In this document: piece by piece, positions 4,177-61,621 of the stretch
Numbering within the stretch: the stretch's first letter is position 1
Layout: each line of letters starts with the position of its first letter
NCBI GenBank assembly: GCA_051294375.1
Contig: CM119266.1
Span: 6,093,431-6,157,430 of the forward strand
Direction of reading: 5' to 3'
Length of the DNA: 64,000 bases
From: Paraspadella gotoi
Taxonomy: Eukaryota; Animalia; Chaetognatha
Program-made: the position numbers and the translations under genes
Notes under the pieces: model-generated
What the model saw: the letters and a program-made list of their open reading frames with translations, nothing else
Told to the model about the DNA's origin: nothing
Databases searched by the model: none

Positions 4177-4289
4177 TCTCTTTTCTCTCTCTCTCCTCTC
4201 TCCTCTCTCCTCTCTCCTCTCCCCCTCTCTCTCTCTCTCTCTCTCTCTCACCCTCTTCTCTCTCTTCCTCTCTCTCTCTCTCTCTCTCT
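3895..4289. repeat. (TC)n microsatellite, the largest of many GA/TC tracts
   Basis: Seen directly; similar tracts at ~1757, 2921, 8353, 20875, 25994, 52850, 57850, 62415, 62697 and 63868, plus (TTTC)n at ~59390-59508. Confidence 0.95.
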
Positions 4290-4380
4290 GCGTCGGGAAA
4301 GCGAGACGTTACTAGTAAAACCGCGCCAGTGGCAGGGGGCGCCACTGAGGGTCCGAAGCCCCATAGAGGCATTACAGGAC
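4286..4380 (+). mobile_element. Diverged, truncated family-A LTR-like copy (twister core)
   Basis: AAAGCGAGAC..AACCGCGCCAGTG..CACTGAGGGTC.GAAGCCCC aligns to the core of 38337-38592. Confidence 0.7.
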
Positions 4381-5499: not shown

Positions 5500-6010
5500 T
5501 TGTTTACAAAGTAGAGAGTTTTTTTAATTTTCTTTTAACAACGATTTTTTTTAATTAATAACAACAACGATATTAACACAATTGTTAAATAGAAAAACAG
5601 CAACAGTATAAATAAAAGCAATTTTTTTTTAAGGTTATAAACTAACAACGATTTATTTTTAATTCGGACATGTTTCGGTACTTATTCGAACCTTCATCAC
5701 CTTTACGATGTAAACAAACTTGCGTTGATGAAAGTTCGAATAGGAACCGAAACATGTCCGAATTAAAAATAAATCGTTGTTAAAAGAAAATTAAAAAACT
5801 CTCTACTTTGTAAACAAAATTCACAATACAACGAAAAAGAAAGAAAATTAAACAAACAATTAAACAATTAAACAAAATTTACAATACAACGAAAAAGAAA
5901 GGAAATTAAACAATTATGCAAAACTTTTAACTTTTAAACTTTTAAAACAACAAATGTCAAAAAGCGCTGAGTGATGAAGGCTCGAAAATATAGTCGAAAC
6001 ATGTATTACG
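5500..6010. mobile_element. Penelope-like element remnant: inverted pseudo-LTR arms with three minimal hammerhead-like motifs
   Basis: Inverted repeat 5644-5699 versus 5726-5782, extended by 5500-5550 versus 5765-5818. Motifs TGATGA-stem-GAAACATGT(C/A) at 5666-5700 (-), 5725-5758 (+) and 5971-6005 (+). Confidence 0.6.
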
Positions 6011-6228: not shown

Positions 6229-6442
6229 TATGGTGGACTAAAATCCACCAACCGTTCTCCAGTGGCCATTGGTGCCGGAGGCAAGTCATTCGCCTCCCAA
6301 CCCGGTGGCCGTCCTAGCAGTAAAGAGGGACGGGGCGCTTTACCCGCCTGTAACACGGTGTTACAGCCTGATCCGAAGCTCAGGGACTCCTTATATTGAA
6401 CAGTTCTGTCATTAACATATAACAATAATTACTGTCTCTTCA
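6229..6442 (+). mobile_element. Family-B solo LTR (twister site mutated TAA to TTA)
   Basis: TATGG...TTCA termini, TSD TTTT/TTTT, homologous to 44574-44805 and 47116-47319. Confidence 0.85.
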
Positions 6443-13400: not shown

Positions 13401-16118
13401 GAGACTTGGATCTGGAATCGGCGTTAGTTCGGTTGGAAGAGGAGCAACAGAGAGGCGCTAGTCTCGGTGTGTGTCTTTTGTTTGTTTGTTTGTTTATTTT
13501 GTTTTTATTTTTATTACAATCCCTGTCACAGCTCACGTGAATTCGATGCTGCGTGAACAACTGGACGAAGCGACGGAAGCGAATCACAGTCTCACGAGTG
13601 ATATTCAGAAGATCAGCCAAGATTGGCTCTCCACAAAGGTCTCTTTTATTAATTTATTTATTTATTTGTTTGTTTTACATACTTAATTTTTTTATTTATT
13701 ATTTATTCATTTAAATATTTATTTGTTAATTTATTGGTACATTTATTTAATATTTCATTTTAAGGAGGAATTAAAAATGAAGGAGACGGCCTGGGAGGAA
13801 GAAGAGGCTTCCTTCACAAATTATTACTCGAACGAACACAACAAACTTCTCAGCCTTTGGAAGGACGTCGTCAATTTCAGGTATTATTGTTTTTGTCTTT
13901 TGTTTTGTCTTTTTTTTTCTTTTCATGTCATTATGTTTTGTTTTAGTCTTTTGTTTTTGTGTTAATCTTTTGTTTTTATTTATTGTCTTTTGCTTTTCTC
14001 TTTAGCTTTTGTCTGTTGTTTTTGTCTTTCTTTTTTGTTTTTTGTTTTTTTTTTCTTTTCTTTGGCAAAGATTTTTTATATTTCCCAACATTCTTTCACA
14101 TTAGTGATTCGCTGTGAGGTTTTTTATTATTATTTATAAATTAACTTAAAAAAAGTCTTTATTTTCAATCTTTTCTCATTGTTTTTGTTTTCCTTCATGA
14201 GATGAAACATCCGATTTTGACTAAAGAATAAATATTATCTTGACATCTTGACCGTTGGGCGGACCTCCAGACTTCTTGATCATTGACATGACCTCTTGAC
14301 CTTCTGACCCCCACCCCCGCGTCCTTTCCAGACGCCAATACGTCGAGATGAAGACGGCGAACGAGCGCGACCTCTCGTCCGTCCGCGCGGATGTGACGCG
14401 TGCGATGAGGACGATTCACGCCGGATGCGTTAACGTGGGAATCAAGGTTGGAACGCCTCGTCGAAAATGGGGGGGCGACTGTTAAGCGGGGGTTTTGGGT
14501 GTCATATCATGTCTTTTATCATGTCAAATCATATCATGTCTCTTATATACTATCTACTATCTACCAGTCTCTTAGGAGGCGTGGGTTCGAATCCGACCAC
14601 TGCCACCACATTTAAGTATTTAGACAGGAATTTCAATATGAAACCAAAGTGGATTTTATTCTCAGATATAAGTTATGCGAAGACGGTGTGAGAATTTGAG
14701 ACAGATGGATTCAATACAAAAAACAATCAGTATTTATACAGTTCAACCGGATCATCGACACGGCCTCGTTTTCCCGATGGCATGAAGCCCCTCTTCTCAT
14801 TGGTCCATTCCGATGGTGATTCATCCAATCGGCGCGTCCTTGTTCGATTTCATCCGATTCCGTCTGCGATGATACTATCTACTAAACTACTATACTTACA
14901 TATATATAATATATTATATATAATATATACTTATATAGTGACTCTGTCTCTTATAATATTATGTCCTTTAATATATTATGAAATTGGTATAAAATTATCC
15001 ATTAATTTAATAAACAACGTGCCCCTGACTTTGGACAGGCTTGGGTGGTTTAAGCCCTCCATCACTCTTACAAGATAATGACAAAGAAGGTCCCTGCAAG
15101 TTTTCAATCAAGACTCTCTGACTCTCAGTCTTTTTTATTCACTCCCAGAGTACCTGGCTTCCCTATCAATGAAGTGACATAATATTTCAAGGAATGTGTT
15201 TTGTTCTATTGTCTCTTTTTAAACGTATTATGAATTCTATAAACCTCTTCCTTATCCCATCTCCCCAATCGCACCCCCGCCACACCCCACCCCCCCTTTC
15301 CAGACCCGCGCCTCTGACAACGAGCGATCGTCCCTCATCGGCCGCGAGACGGACTCTCGAAAGGAGGCTGAGTCTCGATTGAGAGAGAAGGAGAGAGAGA
15401 CGGAGGAAGTGAAGAGAGAATCTCAGAGCCGAGTCAGGGCTTTGGAGGAAAAGGTAAGGGAATGATTGGGTGAAGGAGAACTTACCCAAAGGGAAGGATG
15501 TTAAGGGTCAGGATAAAGATTAAATCAGGGATTTGGTTTTGGTTTTGGTTTGAAGATTACGGATGGATATGAAGTATTAAGATGAGAGATTAGGTGTAAG
15601 ATTAAACCTAAGCCTTCTCTGATCTTAGTTAAATAGGGAGCATAAGTATTAACAACTTACATGCTTTGTTCATTTTATAATGATGTCAGAAAAAAAAATC
15701 CCATATGCCTATATTTGAATTCTTAGCTGGGGTCTCCCTAGAGAATCTGCTAGAAAATCTTCCTTTTTTTTTCACCATGGTCTTTGTAAACAGGGAATGA
15801 CTCTTTCCATCGCGATTCATTAATCGATAAATTTTCTGCAATATGCACTATTAGTTTAAACTACCCCAAATTGTAAAAATATCAAGTTTTGCCGTTACAT
15901 GCAATTCTTTGATATAATAATGATTTGTAGGAGACTAAAAATAGACGGTCTCCTCAGATTTGTTATTTTTTAATTTCTCTCCCTCAGTTATCGTTGGTCG
16001 GCGCAGAATTGGAAAAACTCAAATCAGAAATTAGAAGTAAAGAAGAAAAAATCAAAAGTTTGGAGGAAATGAAATTAGAACTGGAGTCGAGAGTGGATCA
16101 TCTGGAGGTGAGAGTGAG

Positions 16119-16149
<31 letters not shown>

Positions 16150-19100
16150 TAATATTAATCATGTTATCATTTTAATCTTGATGACAGGCGGCGAAGAATT
16201 TGACTTCGGGAAAACTGGACGAAGAACAAGAAGAGAAAAAAAGTTTGGGCGACGAAAATGTCGCGTTGAAAGTGAGATTAGTTGTTGTTGTTGTTTTTCC
16301 ATTTTCATTTGGCTAATTTCTCCCATCTATTTGTATATAATTCATTCATTTTTCCCATTTATCAAATATGTACATTTATCACTTCGTTATTATCTTATCA
16401 ATTTGGCTTTTCTATTTGTCTAATTTATATTGTTATTCTATTTCTTTCATATCTAATCCAATAGTCCAATACATGTTTCTGTTCCATTTCACTTATTAAG
16501 ATGTAGTTCGCCCTTTCTTAATCATAAAATCAATTATTGAATATTAATGAGAAACCCAACCCTCATCTCAAATATTTTTATCCAATCACAACTAACTTCT
16601 CAATCTTCCTCCAATCAAAACTCAAATCCTTCACTTACCCCCAACCACCCTCCCACCCCACCCCCTCAAATCCATCCACCCCACTCTCCCCTTCAAAAGG
16701 ACGCCCTCCGCGGCATCGCCTCACTCGTTCTCTCCGACGCCGAGATTCTACCGGACGAAGACGTCGGCGTCGTCGTCGATTCGTGCGGCGTCGTTTCCGG
16801 CTTCGGCGCGGCGTCTGCTGACGACGCCGCCGCCATCTTGGCTCGCGCTGCGTCGCCAATTCGGTCGCGGCCGTCGTCGCCGACGCGGCAGCTGCACGGG
16901 CGGACGAGGAGCGACTCGCCTGGGAGGTGAGGGAAGGTTGAGGGGCGGTTGAGTAAGTTGTATCTCCGGTCTTAGGATTATACACAAAACGTAATTTCAA
17001 GTTTATTACAACAATTTATATAAAAAAAGGGACGTTTATGGATGGTTTTTTTTATAACTGAAAACTGTATATAAACTTGAACTATAAAACTATTTCAGTA
17101 ACTGTCATTACTTCAATATGCAAATGAGATTATAGCACCTAATCTCATTTCATGCTGCATGCTATAGTTATTCTTGATACCGATTTTTCTTGTCTGTTAT
17201 ATTTAAATTGAAGCTTAATTCGTAATTTCTGAATTCCGCTCGCCAGATTCCGCTCTCTCTCCCCACGCCGCACGCCCGCCTTCGTCGAGTCTACCTGCAA
17301 CGCCGTCCAATCCGCCCTCAACAAACGTCAGTTGCAGATCAGGGAACTCCGCGCCAAGTTGCTCGCCAGCAGGGACCAACAGACGCACCTCAAGAAAGCA
17401 TTGGATGATGTAAGTTAGATTTTAAAAAAGGTGAATGAGGATTGGATAAAATTGAATCATTATGGCAACAGCCGGGTTGCCTGTGATGCCCATCGAGATG
17501 GGGCATCTCACTGTTGGCTTTGGGGGCTTCCAACCCTCAGTGACGCATCCAGTCACTTGCGCGGTTACCCCCGGACGGTCTCGCTTTGCCAACGCAGAGG
17601 GATGTCGTGAGGACTGTGGATGGAACACTACGCTTGGGATGGTGTGTTCCCGTGACGTGAGGCGGTGTGAATATACCGCCACATCATAATGTTAAAAGTT
17701 TTTTATCATTAAGAGATATCGCATTAGGCCTTTTACACATTGGGTCATTTAGGTGACCCGGAATTACATGTATTTTGGTTTCTTTCTGTCAGTCTGTATC
17801 ATCTTCATAACTTCTTGAAAGTAGCCATGGTTTGATAAATGGTCCACGCATTTAAAGCGTGTTTTAAAATACATTTTAATGCTCTCAAATTTAATTATTT
17901 GTATAATAATCATTTATTATCATTTAACTGAATTAAATTTTCTTCCAGGTTGTCGGGGAGAAGCAAGATTTGATCCAACATCGTGAGACATCGAAATTAG
18001 AGGCTGAGGATTTGAAGCAGACGAAAATCAATTTGGAGAGAGAAAAGGATTTAGTGAAAGGACAATTGGCCATCGCTAATGTGGAGAAAGGGAATTTGGA
18101 GAGCGGGAGACAGGTAGAGAAGAGAAGAGAAGAGAAAGAGAAGAGAAGAGAAAAGGAACGTCAAGATTATAAAAGAAAATAAATTTACTAGGATTTAAAA
18201 GAAAACAAAGAAAGAAAAAGTTAAAAAAAATAATATAAAAAAATTTCAAGCAGAAATAAGGGGAAAAGAAGAATAAGAAATATACTAAGAAATAAAGAAG
18301 GAAAAAAGTGTAAGATAGAAAATAACATTGCAGAAAATGAATTAAAAGAAATAAATTAAAGAGAGAAGGAAAGAATAGAAAAAAAGGGGGAAAAAAGAGG
18401 AGAAGAAAGATAGAAAAAATAAATGAAAAAAATATTACTTTTAGATAAAAATTATTCAATCAATCAATCTTCCACTCAGGCGCTCCTTGACAAACTAGAA
18501 GAGATCCGCACGGAAGTGGAGCGCGTGCGGACGGCCAACTCGGAGCTCCAACGTCTCCGCGACAACTTGGAGGACGAGAAGGAGGATCTGGTGAAGGATG
18601 CGGAGAGGCGCGCCAAGGAGTTCGTCAGAAATCAGAAGACGATGCAGTGTTTAGAGGCGAAAAACTCACAGTTGAAGGTTTGGAAAGCGCTTGATCTTTT
18701 TTGGAATTAAGTTAAGTTAAGTTCGTTTTTGTAAATATCTTATATTATGAATTAAAGAAACCCTAAAAAATATATTTTACGTACAATTATTTATTTTAAA
18801 TAAAAATTTCAATGAATTTTGTTTTCTTAACGTAAGTCTTTTTGTAATTTTTTTTTCATTTCTCTTTTTTTCTCGCTAAGAATCTACATATTATTTTAGT
18901 ACTCATGAATATATTCTTAATTCGGTTTTATTTTCTTGCTTAACATTTTTCCTCTGTAAATTTTGGTTGATTTTTTATCTTCATAATGATTTCCACTTCT
19001 CTCTTCCGCTCTCTCTATTACTTAATTACTTTCAGCCTAACAATATTTGTTAACAAGATCGATGTCTGTCCTAATTCTCCAGGAGGATCTCTACAAGATG

Positions 19101-20920: not shown

Positions 20921-23900
20921 TTTGAAAGGTCGCGTATCCAAGGTTTCCCCCACTAAGTAGTAAAAGATTGTAATCTTTTACTAATTTAGTCTGTTATTCA
21001 GATACTTGACCAAATTCACAGAGTTTTCTGAATGCTCAAATTTGACTTAATTCACATAATAGACTGCATGCACAAGAATTGACTTAATTCACAGAATGAA
21101 TTCACCGAATTCATTCCCCCCCCAACTTATCTCTCTAGGACTCCGCGCGGACAAGGAAGGGCTCGAGACGGCCGTGTTCGAGTCTCAGCAGCGAATCTTG
21201 ACGCTGGAGAATCGAAAGGAGGCGCTGGAGGCGGAGAATCAGGAGCTGCTGCTGCGGAAGGACGGGCTGCTGGAGGACGTGCAGCGGCTGAGGTGAGGTT
21301 TATGATGTAGCGAGTCACGAAGAGGAGTTTTGAGGAAAGTCTTAACTCTTTAACTATTTAATTTGGTTTGTTGCAAAAAAAGTTGGCTCTTTTAACCTAA
21401 CCTTTTCTTTGAGACAATTAATTTAAAAATATAACAACAGAAACAGTGAAATAATGTTTCTCATCCTAAATTCTGAAATAGTTTTAAAATTACTCTGATA
21501 TTTACAATATTTATAAACATTAAATTAATTTTTATTCCTTTATTCCAAATCGAGTCAGTCTGTAAGAGGCGTTTCATCTTGTCCTTTCACAATGACCTTT
21601 TGTTTTCCCCAGATTCCAACTCGAATCGGACAACGAGAGAAAAGAGAGAGAGAAAGAGACGTTGATCGAAAAATCTGAGAAAGACAATCAAGAGAATCAA
21701 ATTCGGCTGCAGCAGGCGAGGCAGACGCACGAGGAGGACGTGGAGAAACTTACCCAAGAAAAGATTGAGTTGAGGTAAGGCCTCGAGGGTCTTGGATTCG
21801 ATGGCAGCGTTGAGAGTAAGTTTAATTTCTTACTTTTTTTTAACTTCAGATCGCAACTGGAGAAAGCGAGGGACGAAGCTATTTATAGATTGGAGGTGGA
21901 GAAAGAAGAGCTCAACGGAAAATATAATCAAGAGAAGGTAAGTTGGTAAATTAGGTAAGAAGGTTTATTTAAATTTAATTAAATCAGTCGCGAATAACTT
22001 TTTACGAACTGCAATATCTTTAATTGATTAATGTTATTATTATGGTTTTTGTTATCTTATTAAGTTAATATAATTTGTCCTTTTAAGCAATCGCAAATAA
22101 TTTTTCTAGACTGCTTCATATTTTATTTGCTTGTAATTATTTGCTTATCAAGTTATTTCTTTTTTCCCCCAGGAGGAGCTCAACAACGAAATCCTTCGCC
22201 TCCAGAAAGAAAGAGACGATTGTCTTTTGTTGGCGGAAAACGAGAAACAGCAGCGCCTCTCGCAGGCGCAAGCGGACAAGGCCGCCATCTTGGAAAAAGT
22301 CTCCGTCGCCAACAATCAACTCGGGTGAGAATATGAGAATTTATGAACAGTGAATTCATACCAAATTTCAAACATATATGAGGAAAAACATTAACAAATG
22401 CGATATAATGCCTATTTAATTGTTTATAATAACAAACAACATTTTACAGGGAAACTCGCGTCGAATTGGATAAAGCGAAGCGAGAAGCGGAAATGGAAAG
22501 AGAAGCGAGCAAAGAAAAGATTCACGCTTTAAACACAGAAATCCAAAACAACAGGTTTTCATCCTTTCTTTAAAAGATTAAAAATTGGATTAATAGGCTG
22601 CGTTGGTCTCTTGATATCTAAATATCCATCCATCGATCCAACTATCCACACTTCCATCTGTCCATTTATTTTTTTATCACTTTATCCATTTCATCCGTCC
22701 ATTCTTCAATCCATCTATTAATCCATCCATTCAGAAAACCATCCATCCATTTATCAATCCACTCATTGATTAATCCCTCCCTCCTTCCGATCCATATTCA
22801 TTTAACTCATCCATCTATTTGACTGTCCATATATTTATTCATCCATTATGGCAACAGCCGAGTTGCCTGTGATGCCCATTGGGATGGGGCATCTCACTGT
22901 TGGCTTTGGGGGCTTCCGACCCTCAGTGACGCATCCAGTCACTGGCGCGGTTACCCTAGGACGGTCTCGCTTTGCCAACGCAGAGGGAAGTCGTTAGGAC
23001 TGTGGATGGAACACTACGCCTGGGATGGTGTGTTCCCCCTCTGAGCCAATGGATTTGGCTGAACGATGGTGGTCGTGAGGCGGTGTGAATATACCGCCAC
23101 ACCATCCTATATAATCGTTCATTAGTTTAACAATCTATAAATCCATCCATCTATTGATCCATCCTTGGGTCCATTCCTTCATCTATTCATCGAACCCATC
23201 CATTTAATACATCTATTAATCCATCCAAACACCTATTAATCCATTCATACATCTATTAATCCATCCATACATCTATTAATACATCCATACATCTATTAAT
23301 CCATCCGATCCAGATCAGCGTTCGAGGCCTCGACTCTCGCTCAAGAGAAGGAAGTCAAGGAGGCGGAGAATCGCGTCGTGGAGTGGAGACAGAAGAAGGA
23401 ACAGGTCGACCACGAGCTCGCCGAGTGCAAGGTCGGAATAAGAATAATTTTATTAGATATAGCTTTAGAATTTTTAATTTAAAATAAACACTCAATTACT
23501 AAGTACTGAATCGTGGCGAATCAGTCGACCCCGAAACTAAATATTTTGTAAAACGTAGGTTTGAGACGATTTCCTTGTAGATTTTATCTCAGTATCCAAC
23601 ATACAAATAGGATTTAAGTGTCTACTCAAATATTTAGCTACAAAATAAATTTTCTTTAAAAATTAAACAAAATTAATGTTAAAAAGATTTTGAAGGCGTC
23701 CAGGAAGAAGATGATTTTAAAAGTTAAAAAAATAGTAACATTCTGCAATGATCTGCATTGATGTCATTGTAAGGTTACAACAGAATGTCTAGCAGCAAAA
23801 GCTATTCATGCGCTTGTCCTCAAATCTTCAAATCTCCATAACGATTCATCTTCAAACGTTCGTTGCCCAATGCACAGAAGTCCATTGCCCATTTGTCCAT

Positions 23901-32300: not shown

Positions 32301-34385
32301 GTTAATTAAATATAAAAACTGACTTGTTTTTAAATCTAAGCTAAAATATTTTCAACCACAACAGTTTTGACTGACTGACCAGTGACCACGACCTTCCCCT
32401 TTCTTTCGGCACCGCAGATCACTCCGCGCCGGAGAAGAGATGCGGTCCCTCCGTTCCATCCTCGGCGCCGCATCCCCGGGAGCTGGCGACGCCGATGACG
32501 CCGTTGCCGGCGCCGTCGCAGGAGACGGCGTCGATCGATTCCATGACAAAGACGCCGCGGAATTATCGATGGGAAAGAGTCTGAGGGATTCGGGATTCGA
32601 AACGAAAAGTGAGATTTGGTGGATTTGGTTGATTTTAGGAGGGTGAGGGATGTAACTTGATTGTAGGCGGGTAAGGGATGTAACTTGATTGTAAGCCGGT
32701 GAGGGATGTAACTTTATTGTAGGCGAGTAAGGGATGTAACTTGATTGTAGGCGGGTGAGGGATGTAACTTGATTGTAGGCGGGTGAGGTATGTAACTGAA
32801 TGTAATAGTTAATAAAATAGAAGAATTAAAGAGAGAGGGGGAGAGAGAGACGGGCACTTCCTTACCTTATACCTCTCCGTCCTCCTTACCCTCTTCAGCC
32901 GGAGCCAAAGATATCCTTCTTTCTCCGACTCCAGATTTTCGCTCAACATTTTCCGGCAAAAACGATTCCACTCGATCGAGTCTCCGGATTCCGGAATCGA
33001 AGCCGGAATCTCGGCGGAGGACGCCGCCCACCAAACTGGCCGCCGCCGACGCCGCGAGGTCTTGAGATTGGATGGAATGAATGGACTGCAATGAGTGACA
33101 ATGTGCAATTGACGCTAAGGGACTGCCGCTTATAGTTATAGACTGCTATAGTAATTAACGTTTTAAATTTAAACGATTTTTAGTATTTAATCTTGAAGTA
33201 TTTCCCTAATTACTTTTAATTCTTTGTGACAAATAATTTTGTTGCGTTCGTAAATCTATTTTTAAATTAAAAATTTAAAATATTCCATTCTCTGCGATGA
33301 TAGGGTAAGCCTACTCAAGTTTTAAAAAAAATTATTACAAAAATATAAAAGAGAATTAAATTATTTCTTGCCACTTAGATTAGGTACGAGCTTTGGTGTT
33401 TTTTGTCACATAAAACCGTCAATAATTTTATTCTACAAAGAGAATATGCATAGAAATAATAGGACTAATTTATAAAATAAACCACCAAAGCTTGTCCAAA
33501 GTCAGTGACAAGATAGCTTATTTATTAAATGAATGGGTAATTTTTATATTGGTTGTTGATAAAAAAATAATGAAAAATACGGATTTTCTGAGAATTTTAT
33601 GGAAAAATTCCTCCCAAATCGAATTTTATTTTAACGGTTTTGATTTTTTCTTTAGGCCGATGGAAGGTAGACGCCAATTGTCACCAACAAGAACACTCTC
33701 TCCCGTCAGGTACATGATACATAATTATAGGGGTCGCCCCACTCAATGAGGTGAGTCAAAAAGTTAGATCGAGTACAGGCTCAAACGAAAATGTATTCAT
33801 TTTGTCAAGAATACTTTCAATGGGCAAAAAATTTAACCTTTTGTCGACTAGAACGCGCAGCGGTTCTCCCCAGCGCCACCGCGCGGGCGCGACTCACCAA
33901 AGGCTGACGTCGACGCCGGCGACGAAAGTGAGCGACGCCGGAGCGAACTCGGGTAAGTTTTGGGTGAGTTCGGAGAAAATTAGGTTAAAAACTCATTTTT
34001 ATAAACCGGTTTATCAGGTTAATCGGGATAAGAACAGACCTTTTTTTAGAAATTGGGTAATCATTAAGGACAGAATTTTTTTACTACCCCTTGTTAACCT
34101 TTCTTTCCTTTTTTTCTTTTCTCTTCTTTTCCTTTTTTCTTTTCCTTTCCTTTCCTTTTCCTCTCGTTTTCTTTCCTTTCCTTTCCTTTCCTTTCCTTTC
34201 CTCCATATCCAGAGCCGTATTCATGGCAACAACGCGCCACTAGTCCTGATCGTCAATCCGCTTCTCAAACAGACAGCCTTCGCTTCTCCCGCGAGTCCCA
34301 GCTGAGAAGCGGACATTCGAAACCGCTTCCCACGGGGTCGGCCGCGCAAAATGGATTTCAGCGGAGAAGCAACCGAAATTCATGA
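10410..34385 (+). CDS. CROCC: Rootletin (ciliary rootlet coiled-coil protein), about 48 exons
   Basis: GT-AG exons; the junctions I translated join in frame. They give EEESASYRRKLESFHESQQRQAQLVQKLQSKVIQYKRKCSELEQ, LESALVRLEEEQQRGASLAHVNSMLREQLD, YYSNEHNKLLSLW, DALRGIASLVLSDAE, EVDPEGVRVALLDF and RERSHRQRVKGLEEQV, all recognisable rootletin motifs in a long coiled coil. First exons 10410-10608, 11415-11574 and 12771-12972; last exon ends at TGA 34383-34385. The start codon and last three exons are less certain. Confidence 0.93.
14563..14608 (+). pseudogene. 3' half of a mature tRNA-Leu including CCA
   Basis: ACCAG-TCTCTTAGGAGGC (long variable arm)-GTGGGTTCGAATCCGAC-CACTGCC-A-CCA matches the animal tRNA-Leu(AAG/TAG) 3' half. 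Confidence 0.85.
14611..14900 (-). mobile_element. LTR (Ty3/Gypsy-like) followed by a tRNA-Leu primer-binding sequence
   Basis: Minus strand TGTAAGTAT...ATACTTAAA (terminal inverted repeat, one mismatch), with internal CCAAT, TATAAATA and AATAAA in LTR order, then TG + TGGTGGCAGTGG. Confidence 0.75.
14975..15083 (+). repeat. Dispersed repeat (family C); inverted copy at ~59838-59960
   Basis: GCCCCTGACTTTGGACAGG...CTCCATCACTCTTACAAGATAATGACA matches the reverse complement of 59838-59900. Confidence 0.7.
17461..17683 (-). mobile_element. Family-A solo-LTR-like element in a rootletin intron
   Basis: Near-identical to 22847-23101 and 38337-38592 apart from an internal deletion; termini TGTGG...CCATA; 4-bp TSD TCAT/TCAT. 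Confidence 0.85.
17512..17594 (-). ncRNA. Putative twister ribozyme, type P5 (family A)
   Basis: Same core; T1 loop TGG pairs with CCG through a U-G wobble; one P3 mismatch. Confidence 0.62.
19620..19870. repeat. Minisatellite (~23-nt and ~20-nt units containing TTGAGAGTGGA)
   Basis: Tandem GCATGAAAATGTTGAGAGTGGAG units. Confidence 0.85.
22847..23101 (-). mobile_element. Family-A solo-LTR-like element in a rootletin intron
   Basis: Full-length copy; 4-bp TSD CCAT/CCAT. Confidence 0.88.
22898..22980 (-). ncRNA. Putative twister ribozyme, type P5 (family A)
   Basis: Same core as 38458-38541; predicted cleavage between 22953 and 22952. Confidence 0.72.
32641..32797. repeat. Minisatellite, 28-nt unit
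   Basis: Tandem GGGTGAGGGATGTAACTTGATTGTAGGC units. Confidence 0.9.
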
Positions 34386-35307: not shown

Positions 35308-35919
35308 TAAGGCGTAGTAAAATTCCTAAATTTAACTTTAATTAAAATTCTAAAAATGAGGAACGAACAACATTATACTAATGAACATTTATGTAATAAA
35401 AAAATTCATATTAAATTTTACAATTTACGCAGTAGGCAATATTTATACTAATACTAAACCAATAAATGTTCAAATTTCAAAACAGTTTTTTCTAAGATTT
35501 TTTTGCAGATTTGGATTCGTCATAAAAAGTTGGTATAAAGAAATATAACTCTTTTTGAAAAATTCATTCATTAACTGGGTCAAAAATTAAAAAAACCTAT
35601 ATTTTAAGCTGAAAATTAATTTTTTATATATTAAATATATATATTTTAATTTCTAACCCACTTAATGAAAGAATTTTTAAAAATGATTTATATTTTCTTT
35701 TATTAACTTTTGACAAGGAATTCAAATCTGCAATCAAAATTTAAAAAAGCCTATTTTGAAATTTTTCGATTTTATAAGGAAAGTACTATATATAAATATA
35801 GGCTACTGCGAAAATTAACAAATATAAAATTCATTTTTTTTACAAATTAATGTTCACTGATGGTATGTTGTTCATAATTGACTTTTAGAATTTTCGTATG
35901 TAACTTTCACTACGCCTTA
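35308..35919. mobile_element. Diverged foldback/MITE-like palindromic element
   Basis: Ends TAAGGCGTAGT/ACTACGCCTTA; internal arms TTGCAGATTTG/CAAATCTGCAA and AAATTTCAAAA/TTTTGAAATTT are symmetric about ~35620. Confidence 0.7.
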
Positions 35920-38171: not shown

Positions 38172-38336
38172 GGCGCCTATGGCGGATTTCGAAAAAAACA
38201 AATGATCTCTCTCCGCGCGTAATTTTATCGAAGATTATTCCCTTTTTAATTGTCTGAAATGCTTGTTTTATTATTTTTATTGGCGTTCCGTTTAGCATTG
38301 AGCGTCAGGACCATTGGATGTTGCTAAATGAACCGC

Positions 38337-38592
38337 TGTGGCGGTATATTCACACCGCCTCACGTCCACCATCCGTCAGCCAAATCCATTGGCTCAGAGG
38401 GGGAACACACCATCCCAGGCGTAGTGTTCCATCCACAGTCCTAACGACTTCCCTCTGTGTTGGCAAAAGCGAGACCGTCCTAGGGTAACCGCGCCAGTGA
38501 CTGGAGGCGTCACTGAGGGTCGGAAGCCCCCAAAGCCAACAGTGAGATGCCCCATCCCAATGGGCATCACAGGCAACCCGGCTGTTGCCATA
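38337..38592 (+). mobile_element. Family-A solo-LTR-like element
   Basis: Full-length copy, TGTGGC...GCCATA; 4-bp TSD CCGC/CCGC. Confidence 0.88.
38458..38541 (+). ncRNA. Putative twister ribozyme, type P5 (family A)
   Basis: P5 TGTTGGC/GCCAACA; P2' GCG(A), conserved GA, T1 CCG; short P1; T|AA site at 38486/38487; P2 (C)CGC; T2 GC; P3 CAGTGAC/GTCACTG; P4 GGG-T-CGG-AA-GC-CCC. Confidence 0.75.
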
Positions 38593-38983
38593 CCGCCTTG
38601 CTTTTTTGCTTTTTTGAAAAAAATGAGTTTTGACGTTTACAAGCTGTTGTCTAGATTTATTTTGATTTCAGTGATCTCTCTATTCATTTTATATTTTTTT
38701 TAATTATCAGGTTGTCTCCTAAACTTGTACGAGAGTAACTATGACCTGAATAGTTAATAGTATAAATAACACAAGGGTTGACCGGTTTATTTTAAAATAC
38801 AATTTAAAAATTATCGAAAAAACCGATAAATTATTTTTTTTGTCCACAGAAAGGAAAGAATCATTTACAATTTATTATAAAATCATTTAGATACTAAAAT
38901 AATGGATTGAGCGCAGTCAAAAGTACAACCCGAGTAACACAATTTCAAAATATCATTTTTTTCCGCCTCTTGTAATAAAATAT

Positions 38984-43286: not shown

Positions 43287-45275
43287 TCAATCGTTTGGAT
43301 GTTCAGGGCAAGAGCGATTCACTTCGAACCACCTGTCGATGCAACTGTCACCGAAAAAAGATGAATTTTTCAGTCACAAATATTTAAGGTTTTAAAATAT
43401 TAAATAATAAATAATAAATAATGAAATAGTTAAATATCTAAATTTACCTTTTATGATAAATGCAGAGGCAAGGCAACCGAGCTATGCTATCTCCAGAGTC
43501 CATGTCTTCAAAACAGATCACGCATTCACCGGCTGAGCTGGATAATACATCCTTCTGAAATTTCATTAAATTATGTTTTTAACAAATCGTAAAACGAGCT
43601 CTCTAAACAAAATATATGTTAATATAAACCTCAACCATAATCAGTATCATCGTAGGAAGCTAAATTATAATATAGAATATAGACTTTTTATAAATAAAAA
43701 TTGAGGATGAAACCTAAACCTTAATGGGGTGAAGGGGAAGAAGAAGAAGAAAAAACATATGTAATCCAGAATCAGAGTTTAAAATAGATCTAAAAAGTAA
43801 TAGAGCTGAAAAGTAACTGTAACAACGCAAAACTGATAAAGAACTGACCTGATATGATGACATGACATATAAAATTACAATAGAATTAAAAGTCTCACTT
43901 ACCATTGTAATTTATCCTTGGTTTAGTTAGGCACATGATGAGATGACATTCGATTTCGTCGGGAAGGACAAATTTTGAACAGACGGGACATTTTATACCT
44001 AAAAAATTAGTAAATTATACTGAGAGCGTTTATTCAATTCATGGCATACAATAAAAACGTAGAAAGTTGAACTTTCATTTACGTACATTTAGTATTCAAT
44101 ACAATTAATAATAAAAATTAATGACATTGATTTTTACAGTTGATAGACCGATGAAATTACTTTCCGTCAATAAGTTGTTCATTAAGATATAGTTAACAAT
44201 CCTAATACCTAATACTAATCCTAATACCTAATGCTAATCCTAATACTATTCCTAATACTAATCCTAATACCTAATACTAATCCTAATACTCGTTTACAAC
44301 CAAAGACAATAACACTGTCTACTCCTGAGGATAAAAAATGTTATCCTTTTCTCATTTAAAATAAGAAAGAATTAGTTATATTCGGCTAAAAGAGTTTTTA
44401 AAAACGTCAAACAAAAATATACATAGGATAGGTGAATATAAAATTAAATGTTACGTATACTGCAATATGCAAATACAAATATGGGGAAACAAATACGATG
44501 TTAAAACGGATAGTTGAGATAGAAAGATTAGAGTGTAAATTATCACAGTTATAATATAAAGCTATTATTTCCTTGAAGACAGTAATTATTGTTATGTGTT
44601 AGTGACAGAACCGTTCAATATAAGAAGTCCCTGAGCTTCGGATCAGGCTGTAACACCATGTTACAGGCGGGTTAAGCGCCCCGTCCCTCTCAACTGATAG
44701 GCGGCCACCGGGCTACAACCCCGGACCTTTGGGTTGGGAGGCGAATGACTTGCCTCCGGCACCAATGGCCACTGATGAACGGTTGGTGGATTTTAGTCCA
44801 CCATAGCCTATTAATAAGATCAGACCCTTGAACCTGGTAAGGAGAGGAGGTGGACCGGCAGAGACTGGGCGTGAAAGACGCGGCCGGTCAAGGGTAAGTT
44901 CATTTCCTCCGGAGTGGACGCTTCGCTGGCGGCGGCCTGACCGTAGGCGCCGTCCGCGGAGAGACCTGCAGAATTAGTCGGCGCCGCCGACGCCGCCGTC
45001 GGTGACGCGGCGTCCATTGGCGATGGAAGCCCGTTCCCTTGGGCGCCGGGGATCCCGATCGGGTGACGCCCGTTCTCCACGGCTCCACCGCCGTGGCCGC
45101 TGGGCACGCTGCCCATGCTCCGGGCGCGCGACCGCGCCCCGGACGGTTCGAGTAGCCCGTTAGGTCGCGAGTCATCGTCAAGAACGGGAGCTTCAGAGGC
45201 ACTTTCGTCGAACTGCCCCGAGGCCGGCGATACGATTCTTGCCACGCCAGTATGCGCACTCTGCCTCGCACCCAT
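43287..45275 (-). CDS. ZNRF2: E3 ubiquitin ligase ZNRF1/ZNRF2 family
   Basis: Myristoylation-type start MGARQS, zinc finger KCPVCSKFVLPDEIECHLIMCLTKPRINYN and RING-H2 ECVICFEDMDSGDSIARLPCLCIYHKSCIDRWFEVNRSCPEHPND. Exons 45275-44834, 43998-43903, 43554-43448 and 43344-43287. There is one surplus base at the exon-3 acceptor (see findings). Likely a single co-ortholog of ZNRF1/2. Confidence 0.93.
44574..44805 (-). mobile_element. Family-B solo LTR in ZNRF intron 1, same strand as the gene
   Basis: Full copy; flanks TCCT/GCCT (3 of 4 TSD bases match). Confidence 0.85.
44621..44692 (-). ncRNA. Putative twister ribozyme, type P5 (family B)
   Basis: GAGG-GA-CGG-GGCGCT-TAA-CCC-GC-[CTGTAACA/TGTTACAG]-CCTGA-T-CCG-AA-GC-TCAGG; cleavage between 44674 and 44673. 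Confidence 0.7.
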
Positions 45276-46718
45276 CACGACGCGACCTCGGGTGGGGAAA
45301 TCACGGGACGCATCGATCCGTCGGTCGCGGCGAAGAACACGATTCCTTTTTTCGAACGAAAACGTTTTTGTGCGTAAAAAGACTCATGACCGTATCGTTC
45401 TGTCTCGTTCTCTGTCTGCGTTATAATGCTATGAATAATGACGTCACAAAAAAAGTCTGAGCACGGTCTGAACACGGGATTTCGATGGAGTCGGAGATGA
45501 TCTTTTGTTGGAGGACGAGGGGGAAGAGATTTGGAGGAAGATTAGTTGCGACATCTTTAGAGAAACATATATTTTATTGCGTTTGTTATATACATCATAT
45601 AACACTTGAATAATAGCAAAGCAGTATAAACTATAATTATCGAAGGGCAAGACAATTTTTAAAAAGTACACGATGCCTTAAAATTTAGTGAGTTAATTAC
45701 TTTACGACCGCACGGGCCAAAAGATTCAAATTGATTTTTTTGTAAATATCTTTTCAATCATTTAACTAAAATATTTTTTTTAAATAATAAACTTTTATAT
45801 TCTTGTAACCTTAAACCTAAAACTCAACTTACAATCCGAAAACTGGAAAGGCTCAATCCGAAAAAGCGAAAAAAAAATGCAGCTAATTCGTGATTTTTTC
45901 ATATTTTCACGTATTTTTTTTCCCAAGCAGAGAAAGCTTTTACACCAACAATCAACAATATCATCAAAATAAAATAAGATTTTTGTGACAATTTAAATTG
46001 AACGAATATATTGAAATTAAACTTACGTTTACAACTAACCATTTTGTCCTTTTGTTTCATTAAGCGATAAATTTTAGAATTAAAATCCAAAATGGCCTCC
46101 GGTCTCCGGTCGATAACCTCGTTCTTTCTTTAATTTTCACGCCTTTTTTACGTCAGCCTTTGTGGATTCTTGACGGCGAGGGTGTTTTCTTTCGTAGTAG
46201 TAAATTATAGGCTTCGCCCTACCACTTAAATGTGTGAATCTGTCATATTGGCTTTCAAATTTAATGTTCTTTTTACGTATGCTTAACACGCATGTTATAT
46301 CCGCGTTTGGACTTCAATACGTCGTCACAAGGATTTACTGTTTGTGATATTTTCTGGATTCGTGATTTGTCGTTCGTTGCGATTCATTTCTATCGTCCAA
46401 GCTCAGTATTTTTTGTATATTAATAATTTAATTGGTTTTCGGAATCCTTATTTTTGAATGTTTAAAATAATATCACTGTTGTATTAATTGTTTTAATTTC
46501 GTTGAGTATGCCTTGTATGGTGGACTAAAATCCACCAACCGTTCATCAGCGGCCATTGGTGCCGGAGGCAAGTCATTCGCCTCCCAACCCAAAGGTCCGC
46601 CCACAACACATCAGGCGACATGCCTCAACTTGGTGATGAACTTTCCAACAACAACAATTCACTGAAGAGACGCAACAGACTTCTCCCTACGGGAGGGGGG
46701 GATGTATGGTGGACTAAA

Positions 46719-47115
46719 TGTAAAGTCCAGACGACCGTAACTCAGATGCTCTTTTAATAAAGGAGATATCGACATTCGTCTCTTTCTCTCTTTTGCGGTC
46801 ATTCCAGATTTTGCTCTGAAACGGGACTCTTCTCTAAAATAATAAACGTTTGTGGATGCCTAATGGACACTTAGTGGTTTCTTCATGGATTTGTTTATTT
46901 ATTTACTATTGCTTTGATTAATTAGTATTTCATTATTGTCTGTCTGAATATCTATATGCTTTGATTATTTTATTAAGGTACCATTAAATATCAAGACTCC
47001 AAGTGGATAAGAAACTTTATTATAAACTTTACGGCGCCAGCGGTCCCGGTCTTTAGTCCAGTTTCTCTCCCGACGTCTTCTCCCTCTCCGCTAGGTCGAG
47101 GAGGGGGTTCTTTCA
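46719..47115. mobile_element. Nested solo-LTR-like insertion of a third family inside the family-B 3' LTR
   Basis: TG...CA termini with TSD TAAA (46715-18 and 47116-19); removing it restores TATGGTGGACTAAAATCCACCA. Confidence 0.8.
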
Positions 47116-47198
47116 TAAAATCCACCAACCGTTCATCAGCAGTCATTCGCCTCCCAAACCAAAGGTCCGGGGTTCTAGCCCAGTGGTCGCCTGGCATT

Positions 47199-47270
47199 TA
47201 AGAGGGACGGGGCGCTTAACCCGCCTGTAACATGGTGTTCCAGCCTGATCCGAAGCTCAGGGACTGCTTA
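47199..47270 (+). ncRNA. Putative twister ribozyme, type P5 (family B, 3' LTR)
   Basis: Intact core as in 44621-44692 with one P3 mismatch; cleavage between 47217 and 47218. Confidence 0.68.
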
Positions 47271-47879
47271 TATTGAACGGTTCTGTCACTAACATATAAC
47301 AATAATTAATGTCTCTTCACTTGATTATGTTCTTAATGTACCGCCGGTCCCGCTCGTCCTTTTAAAACTTCTTCCGAAACTAACAGAAAAAAAGAGAAAA
47401 ACTATATATCATCGTCGATCCGCTCCGGCAGACAATTCTTCCCTTAGTAAGCCTTACCATCCAAGTTACCAAAAATAACCGGGATTTACTTGTTAAAACG
47501 TTTACAAGGACATTGGAAAATAATACTGAAAGTGGCAAAACTGTACGCGCTTATGGAAAGGAACGCGTGTGTATTCTCAAAACCCACCAATAACATTTTA
47601 CTTAGCTTCATATTCGTAACATTACATTAGGAAGTAAATTTAATTAATTTTATCTACACACAAAAAAAAAATTTTCTTCCATTTTTTAATCTCTACAGTG
47701 TCAAGTTTTATCGAGTTTTGTAAAAGAGTTAAACTAAAAATACGACCATTGTAATCATAAATAAAAACTGTTATTTTGTAAATATTATTATTATATTTTT
47801 TATAAATTTAGTAATATTTAAATATTCTAATGTTAAATTATTGTATACTTAAGCCGAAACTTAATTTTTAATTTAACTC

Positions 47880-48035
47880 TAATTTACCCTTAATTTACCC
47901 CTAACCCAAACTTACCCCTAACCCAAACTTACCCCTAACCTAAACTTACCCTTACCCCTAACTTACCCTTACCCCTAACTTACCCTTAACTTACCCTAAA
48001 CCCTAACTTACCCCTAACCTTATCTTACCCCTTAC
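47880..48035. repeat. Degenerate telomere-like (CCCTAA/CTTACCC) tract
   Basis: Repeated CTTACCCCTAACC; interstitial. Confidence 0.7.
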
Positions 48036-48705
48036 TTATTTTTAACCTTAATTTATTTTTTTAGTTAACTTACACTTATTCTTAATTTATTCTTTACCAT
48101 AATTTATTGTAACCTTAATTTTTACCCGAATATATATTGGTTGTACCAATTTCATATAACAAAAATAAAAAATATTTTAAAAAAATTATGATATCTGAAT
48201 TCCTTTTTTTTTTTCCAAAACGTTATCCTCTTCCGTTCCTTTTCGTTCTTCTTCTTTTTACCATTAATTCTTTAAAAACCTTGCTCTTCGTTTTCCCATA
48301 GGCCTCCAGAGGGCATTGATCTCTCGGAATGCCCTTTTTACTTATGCTTAACACACATATTCTTGTTATAACTTCAGCAATAACTTTAATATTCGCTTTT
48401 AAAATAGTTTTATATTCCGTATCCCACACTTTTCGTTTAATATCTAGGTCTTTGTTTATGTTTGTTCCCGCAACTCTTGCAAAAACGAAACGAACAATAA
48501 AACACGTGAATTAACGTGAAGAAACAGAATAAACGATTATGGTGACGGCTTGGACATTGCCCGCGTCCGAATCAACACGCCCGTCTCTCGCGACGGAGAG
48601 GCGTTCCTCGTCAAGGTGGCTTCGAACGTAGGCGTGGCGGAAGGCGACCGGCGTCCTTCGTCTTCGTCGGCGACTGAGCGGCGCGGATCCGGCATCTGCG
48701 GAGAA

Positions 48706-55018: not shown

Positions 55019-61621
<6,603 letters not shown>

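Follow-up and report, generated by a model that had tools for sequence, protein, structure and literature searches.

The question raised by this locus is what kind of mobile element carries a self-cleaving RNA motif inside a 256-nt repeat, and whether that motif works. The repeat lies at positions 38337-38592 of a 64,000-nt stretch of the Paraspadella gotoi genome (assembly GCA_051294375.1, contig CM119266.1, positions 6,093,431 to 6,157,430 of the forward strand), the whole of which is called the window here. It was originally predicted, on the length of its target-site duplication (TSD) and its termini only, to be a long terminal repeat (LTR), and to contain a type-P5 twister ribozyme. As explained below, the repeat, which defines family A, probably does bear a functional, retrozyme-like type-P5 twister within an LTR of CsRn1 type, and the motif is predicted from its sequence to cut the RNA of the element.

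The window holds three copies of family A, two of them on the minus strand:

38337-38592, plus strand: copy A3, candidate solo LTR of 256 nt with TGT...ATA ends, TSD CCGC
38333-38336, no strand assigned: left TSD of A3, CCGC
38593-38596, no strand assigned: right TSD of A3, CCGC
38340-38359, plus strand: 5' terminal hairpin of A3, in the minimum free energy (MFE) and centroid folds
38572-38589, plus strand: 3' terminal hairpin of A3, in the MFE fold
22847-23101, minus strand: copy A2, candidate solo LTR of 255 nt, TSD CCAT, with a complete ribozyme core at 22909-22970
17461-17683, minus strand: copy A1, candidate solo LTR of 223 nt, TSD TCAT, with a 33-nt deletion and the core at 17523-17584

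Re-reading of the window bore out the predicted coordinates, termini and differing 4-bp TSDs, as well as the hairpin at each end. The idea that nearly the whole element folds into stems was overstated, as 57-60% of the bases are paired; relative to shuffles, folding of the element gives z = -3.4 and -4.2, and the opposite strand z = -2.4. In their aligned parts the two minus-strand copies are 97% and 94% identical to A3.

Family A is a mobile, high-copy and polymorphic unit. Part of it occurs in 12 of the 14 public sequencing runs listed, which come from five studies; contigs were compared in 8 of the 14 and letters beyond the element ends were compared to 30 positions. High copy number and polymorphism are concluded from the junction contigs that leave the exact element ends, which number up to 218 at the 3' end: 153 (5' end) and 218 (3' end) in run X2, 141 and 180 in X6, and 68 and 95 in X8. 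The DNA beyond the ends in these contigs is unrelated and AT-rich. Summed contig depth (about 10^6 versus 211 in X2) was not taken as copy number. At A3 itself, one 2013-nt contig of X2 represents the empty site: it joins 38331 to 38592 and skips 260 nt, that is, the element plus one TSD, so that a single CCGC is left. The insertion allele is present in X6 and X8. End-to-start joints of the element were absent from the 30 joints listed out of 137. A weak ATAT-like target preference is visible on both sides of the junctions at 38337 and 38592 (agreement 0.41-0.49), and none of the three window TSDs is ATAT; no target preference is reported for CsRn1-like elements (PMC2582038).

That the repeat is an LTR gained support from the DNA behind its 3' end. 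Single contigs of X10 (276 nt; organism B, study P4) and X12 (506 nt; a biofilm metagenome, study P5) continue past 38592 identically, with a 2-nt spacer, AG, followed by TGGTGAGCCC, and the X12 variant is a diverged one, having 7 other letters and 5 gaps in 202. Were the X12 contig a closed cycle, it would leave room for an interior of no more than about 220 nt. The continuation, seen in two independent studies, matches a tRNA-Trp primer-binding site (PBS). When a tRNA pattern was derived from it, 87 of 125 matches among those listed lay within ARAGORN tRNA-Trp genes, while 22 were assigned to Arg and 16 had no assignment, a test that is partly circular because two degenerate letters were picked with a tRNA sequence in mind. 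The tRNA-Trp match covers about 28 letters and extends into the T-arm, a PBS usually being 18 nt long; relative to the closest variant it has 1 mismatch and 3 gaps of one base each. Most of a tRNA copy could fit into the 85 loose letters of X10. Within the window, the PBS word occurs no more often than by chance (1 match against 1.86 expected), and the tRNA pattern has no match in the viral contig collection.

Gypsy elements of the CsRn1 clade are described as having 4-bp TSDs, TGT...ATA or TGT...AAA ends and the tRNA-Trp PBS TGGTGA(G/C)CCC (PMC2582038), and this PBS is likewise given in PMC3630058 and PMC3587641. Family A has the TGT...ATA ends, the 4-bp TSD and, in X10 and X12 only, the tRNA-Trp PBS; since these are published marks of the clade, solo LTRs are the best reading of the family A copies. 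The parent of the 256-nt repeat was likely a Ty3/gypsy element of CsRn1 type primed by tRNA-Trp, of which only one LTR is left, or else a non-coding derivative relying on the enzymes of such an element. Here, CsRn1 type refers to traits and not to membership by phylogeny, because the PBS is seen only in relatives, there is no more than a hint of the polypurine tract (PPT), and neither an internal region nor a coding partner is seen. PwRn1, AgCR1-14, CsRn1_Cv1 and GyRex2 share with family A the TGT...ATA ends, the 4-bp TSD and the first 10 letters of the tRNA-Trp PBS (PMC2582038, PMC3630058, PMC3587641), and the 256-nt length falls within the 146-383 nt of the LTRs in the rows compared. In contrast to family A, no ribozyme is reported for this clade in the literature searched, which did not extend to subscription journals, and the AT-rich LTR of CsRn1_Cv1 has no such motif by eye.

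The next question is what lies in the middle of the LTR. The motif of A3 can be divided into stems (P1 to P5), two pseudoknots (T1 and T2) and the loop L4, as follows:

38458-38541, plus strand: type-P5 twister-like motif, closed by P5 (38458-38464 with 38535-38541), pair probability 1.0 for 6 of the 7 P5 pairs
38469-38477, plus strand: P2 3' strand, predicted general-base G and A (38473-38474) and T1 3' strand (38475-38477), after the layout in Table 1 of PMC8501958
38478-38485, plus strand: P1 segment between T1 and the cut site, an 8-nt palindrome with no hairpin predicted and a self-duplex of -11.2 kcal/mol
38486-38488, plus strand: U^AA, with cleavage predicted between 38486 and 38487 (LTR position 150/151) by the site rule of PMC8501958
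38489-38494, plus strand: P2 5' strand, with a C-A mismatch at its base, and T2 GC
38495-38515, plus strand: P3 hairpin of 7 bp with a 7-nt loop, pair probability 0.97-1.0
38517-38530, plus strand: P4 (3 bp) and L4, comprising U, the T1 5' strand, AA and T2 GC

Each predicted segment is at its expected place in the type-P5 order, and the predicted cut position agrees with the layout. The N^AA of the cleavage site and the opposing G and A are present in all three family A copies. A2 and A3 retain intact pseudoknots and catalytic bases, T1 having 3 of 3 pairs in both; in the core of A1, one T1 pair is a wobble, one P3 pair is broken and the centre of P1 is not palindromic. P2 comprises 3 of 4 pairs with the conserved C-A, P4 comprises 3 pairs, and neither is formed in the MFE fold. 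As regards the fear that the C-A mismatch could inactivate the motif, all 4 window sequences have this mismatch, and P2 imperfections, wherever they lie, are tolerated by natural twisters (PMC11662667). More generally, imperfections of P1, P2 and P4 are tolerated in natural twisters, while those of the pseudoknots and catalytic bases are not (PMC11662667).

The fourth of these window sequences is a truncated fragment, C, from a sister family with the same core. A second LTR-like family, B, has the same architecture. Their positions are:

4283-4362, plus strand: truncated sister-family fragment C, same twister core, 2 of 3 T1 pairs, 76-81% identical to family A
6229-6442, plus strand: family B copy
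44572-44805, minus strand: family B sequence
46516-46599, plus strand: family B sequence
46691-46740, plus strand: family B sequence
47141-47314, plus strand: family B sequence

Our own type-P5 descriptor finds five sites in the window, three in family A and two in family B, compared to a mean of 0.04 and a maximum of 1 in 100 local dinucleotide shuffles; it has no match among 91 unrelated loci, all of which possess the 14-nt P4/L4 word. Families A and B are unrelated, as had been claimed, in that they give no mutual blastn match (word 7, E<=1). The descriptor also recovers in B the predicted swap of T1 from CGG/CCG to CCG/CGG. P3, on the other hand, is not entirely different between the two as first thought, since 5 of 7 letters of its 5' strand agree, with two double changes. 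The proposal that a twister in an LTR is a recurring design in this genome is based on one other family, B, examined in part. Patterns derived from the A/C core have no match in the metagenomic or the viral contigs, and letters similar to C are present in an X8 contig.

The ends of family B are TATGG...TCA, with a TTTT TSD at the 6229 copy, and a purine tract at 46691-46701 is followed by ATG and the LTR start. Its P5 twister has a 3-nt P2 and a 6-nt palindromic P1, and the 6229 copy is without the first A of the cut site. A CA-3' end and a CCATA-3' end occur in both families, oriented oppositely with respect to the ribozyme.

Two further lines of evidence concern the core itself. A and C differ at both partners of three pairs, located in T1 (whose middle pair is swapped in C), P1 and P3, and 3 of 500 shuffles score as high in an alignment of four related rows; across these rows T2 (GC/GC) and the L4 letters U..AA are invariant (4 of 4). 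A covariance model built from the four rows recovers its own rows and puts two B copies in ranks 5 and 7; their E values of 0.13 and 0.42 are on a par with a chance match, so the model has no evidence value. In the genomic copies of X2, variation at >=2% affects none of the 32 core positions versus 26 of 198 elsewhere (p 0.016), and 0 of 5 CpGs vary in the core versus 6 of 6 outside (p 0.002). These p-values are indicative only because conservation extends to the 3' part of the LTR (where 1 of 38 positions varies), the variant-listing rule is opaque and cover dips near 38466. In the biofilm variant (X12), the deletions fall in the P3 loop. Between 38356 and 38509, CpG sites lying outside the ribozyme core are enriched for variants among copies, suggesting methylation of the family A repeat by the host. 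Taken together, the full descriptor match, the compensatory changes and the invariant core among genomic copies support the twister assignment, with cleavage remaining a prediction.

Several points weigh against a functional twister in a CsRn1-type LTR, beginning with the conserved 3' part and the four related rows just described. A cmsearch-type check against Rfam, suggested with the original prediction, went against it: the best match, twister-P1 (RF03160), scores 15.2 bits (E 2) over the 3' half only, far below the gathering threshold of 67.2; RF02684 is not listed at the A3 locus and no twister is found at the A copies in the Rfam scan of the window. The MFE structure of the 84-nt motif is a blocked rod of -33.1 kcal/mol versus -23.0 kcal/mol for the twister without pseudoknots. 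On the LTR side, the PBS is read in one contig each of X10 and X12 only, and the loose-end consensus in runs labelled as organism A, the window's own organism, is washed out, so that the PBS is not readable there. A two-LTR contig was not seen in the runs compared, and no gag, pol or transposase family was found in the 125 window frames scanned (5 + 120 of 225 listed), nor is there an internal open reading frame. The PPT is only hinted by a G-run before 38336 in the loose ends of X1 and X9 (agreement 0.53-0.58).

The only Rfam Twister-P5 match in the window (59855-59897, 25.9 of 37.6 bits) belongs to another repeat, fails our descriptor and is without the AAGC word. It is contained in a further AT-rich repeat family, found at 59838-59947, 14991-15083, 33478-33556 and 55642-55709.

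The blocked fold leads to P1, the unusual part of the motif and one that the original prediction left aside, as the 3' half of the P1 palindrome is what pairs with T2 and P4. When P1 is held unpaired, the pair probability of P2 rises from 0.02 to 0.49 and that of P4 from 0.01 to 0.17. A 2-bp P1 hairpin costs +1.0 kcal/mol. The P1 segments of A, B and C each have different letters and are palindromic, with no hairpin in 7 of 7 segments and self-duplexes of -8.5 to -11.2 kcal/mol, that of C being a different palindrome with a 10-bp self-duplex (-10.8). Hammerheads of Penelope-like elements and salamander repeats, which have a short palindromic helix, cleave as dimers (PMC6765202, PMC7229834). 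By analogy, the palindromic P1 strands of two LTR copies may pair, so that efficient cutting would occur only in two-LTR transcripts, a more speculative proposal that we place just short of an even balance. P1 is dispensable in natural twisters (PMC11662667), the palindrome centre (38482) is the sole variable P1 position, with two variants near 3% each, the P1 centre of A1 is non-palindromic, and a palindrome arises from any stem whose 2-nt loop is self-complementary; all of these speak against the dimer.

If the twister does act in this way, its role may be pictured by reference to the retrozyme model, in which RNA is circularised, primed by a tRNA at the PBS and integrated by gypsy enzymes (PMC4918200). 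The full-element transcript would carry the motif twice, once per LTR, and P1-P1 pairing between the LTR copies would free the core of the blocked fold. With each LTR cut at nt 150/151, the product would be a unit-length RNA without the R overlap, a loss that circularisation and tRNA priming at the PBS could solve. Solo-LTR, full or multimeric cDNAs would be integrated by gypsy enzymes, and the many solo copies would be mostly harmless to host RNAs, as cutting would need two-LTR transcripts. The abundance of young solo copies fits this model, as it does ordinary LTR-LTR recombination. The complete proposal, an animal twister LTR retrozyme that is CsRn1-mobilised and Trp-primed, needs paired palindromic P1 strands for cutting as a natural "double twister", forms RNA circles, leaves hundreds of solo LTRs silent and shares its design among at least two LTR families, is tentative and rather doubtful as a whole.

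Other explanations were weighed against this proposal. The one that survives best, although unlikely, also has an active twister in the same LTR, but as a monomer with a 2-bp P1, which for an autonomous CsRn1-like element would simply process a 5' or 3' end or aid translation, without RNA circles. It would accommodate the varying palindrome centre and is in keeping with reports that P1 imperfections do not lower natural-twister cleavage (PMC11662667) and that Perere-3 T-variants define the 5' end and allow translation (PMC8501958). However, three different P1 sequences all stay palindromic, and a cut at nt 150 in both LTRs would remove the R overlap for strand transfer unless the RNA were circularised (argument from PMC4918200).

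Less probable still is a single capture of a twister that has since lost its activity or relevance, within an ordinary CsRn1 or terminal-repeat retrotransposon in miniature (TRIM)-like family whose core looks conserved since the family is young. The blocked MFE fold, the Rfam scores and the 94-97% identity of the copies all favor this, and the resemblance of P3 to that of the Schistosoma T-variants makes capture from another retroelement plausible, but the A versus C double changes in T1, P1 and P3, the decay of CpGs outside and not inside the core, and the same architecture in the unrelated family B are not accounted for. Ginger-like DNA transposons have 4-bp TSDs and extended terminal inverted repeats. 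Very improbably, the 256-nt unit would be the whole element, such a non-autonomous Ginger-like transposon or a monomeric RNA-derived insert, with the tRNA-like flank one chance site. In its favor, each of the three window copies is single and has its TSD, the majority of junction contigs lead into unique, AT-rich DNA, and the tRNA match is imperfect (1 mismatch and 3 single-base gaps over 28 letters). Against it, the terminal inverted repeat of family A is 5/6 bases only, and the same continuation occurs in two studies on different element variants; it begins 2 nt behind the end with TGG, which is antisense to CCA, and is identical to the PBS published for CsRn1. Nor would a DNA transposon be expected to show selection on an RNA fold. 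A tandem non-LTR retrozyme (head-to-tail units, no PBS, TSD >4 bp) and the Penelope pseudo-LTR and miniature inverted-repeat transposable element (MITE) readings were set aside for the single copies, the 4-bp TSD and the PBS.

Returning to the LTR-borne twister, its closest counterparts are the LTR retrozymes of plants, which likewise have a self-cleaving motif in a structured LTR, a 4-bp TSD, the PBS of a Ty3/gypsy partner, many solo LTRs and a blocked predicted ribozyme fold (PMC4918200, PMC7761336). They differ in their type III hammerhead, tRNA-Met and LTR of 300-400 nt, whereas here there is an animal host, a twister motif, tRNA-Trp and an LTR of 256 nt. Family A is consequently not an LTR retrozyme in the strict sense and can only be said to work like one, because a twister-like motif and a Trp PBS replace the hammerhead and the tRNA-Met PBS. 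Animal retrozymes are said to be without LTR, PBS and PPT (PMC4918200, PMC7761336, PMC7229834).

As to the ribozyme, type-P5 twisters (RF02684) and the Perere-3 T-variants of Schistosoma share with family A the N^AA, GA, T1, T2 and L4 letters, the AAA before the P2 3' strand, and a P3 that starts with C and ends in UG (PMC8501958). Family A is unlike them in falling below the Rfam thresholds, in having both P3 and a closed P5, and in its loopless palindromic P1; in addition, its motif is mid-LTR, whereas the T-variants are at the 5' end of a long interspersed nuclear element (PMC8501958). The dimer-cleaving hammerheads of Penelope-like elements and salamander retrozymes are alike in the palindromic helix beside the cut site and the motif present twice per transcript, but belong to another ribozyme and element class, and dimer cleavage is shown there and predicted here (PMC6765202, PMC7229834). 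The literature searched, which excluded subscription journals and the supplementary twister lists of PMC11662667, yielded neither an LTR-borne twister nor a natural twister acting as a dimer; nothing on a twister in an LTR was added by passages of PMC13725137, PMC3286476 and PMC12471100. In the literature compared, LTR-borne ribozymes are placed in plants only, as hammerheads, and twisters in non-LTR elements.

The surroundings of the three copies are as follows. Pfam matches in the window are to Rootletin, MFS and chitin-binding exons, with a weak TNF match (E 0.088). A3, whose insertion is polymorphic, lies in sense 165 bp behind the stop of the TNF-like frame and before the first AATAAA at 38974 (region 38172-38979), and because of this position it may sit in a 3' untranslated region. 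A1 and A2 are antisense within the span of rootletin-like exons. Long imperfect, MITE-like inverted repeats occupy 35344-35894 (73% over 560 nt) and 5643-5782 (84% over 140 nt), and a tandem 17-nt repeat with telomere-like TTACCCC/CCTAA words is found at 47839-48078.

If the proposal is true, an animal gypsy-LTR twister under apparent selection would extend the retrozyme strategy to a new kingdom, a new ribozyme class and a new primer tRNA, and ribozyme classes would be interchangeable in LTRs. In addition, a twister that requires a partner would explain how a genome tolerates many self-cleaving motifs in or near its genes.
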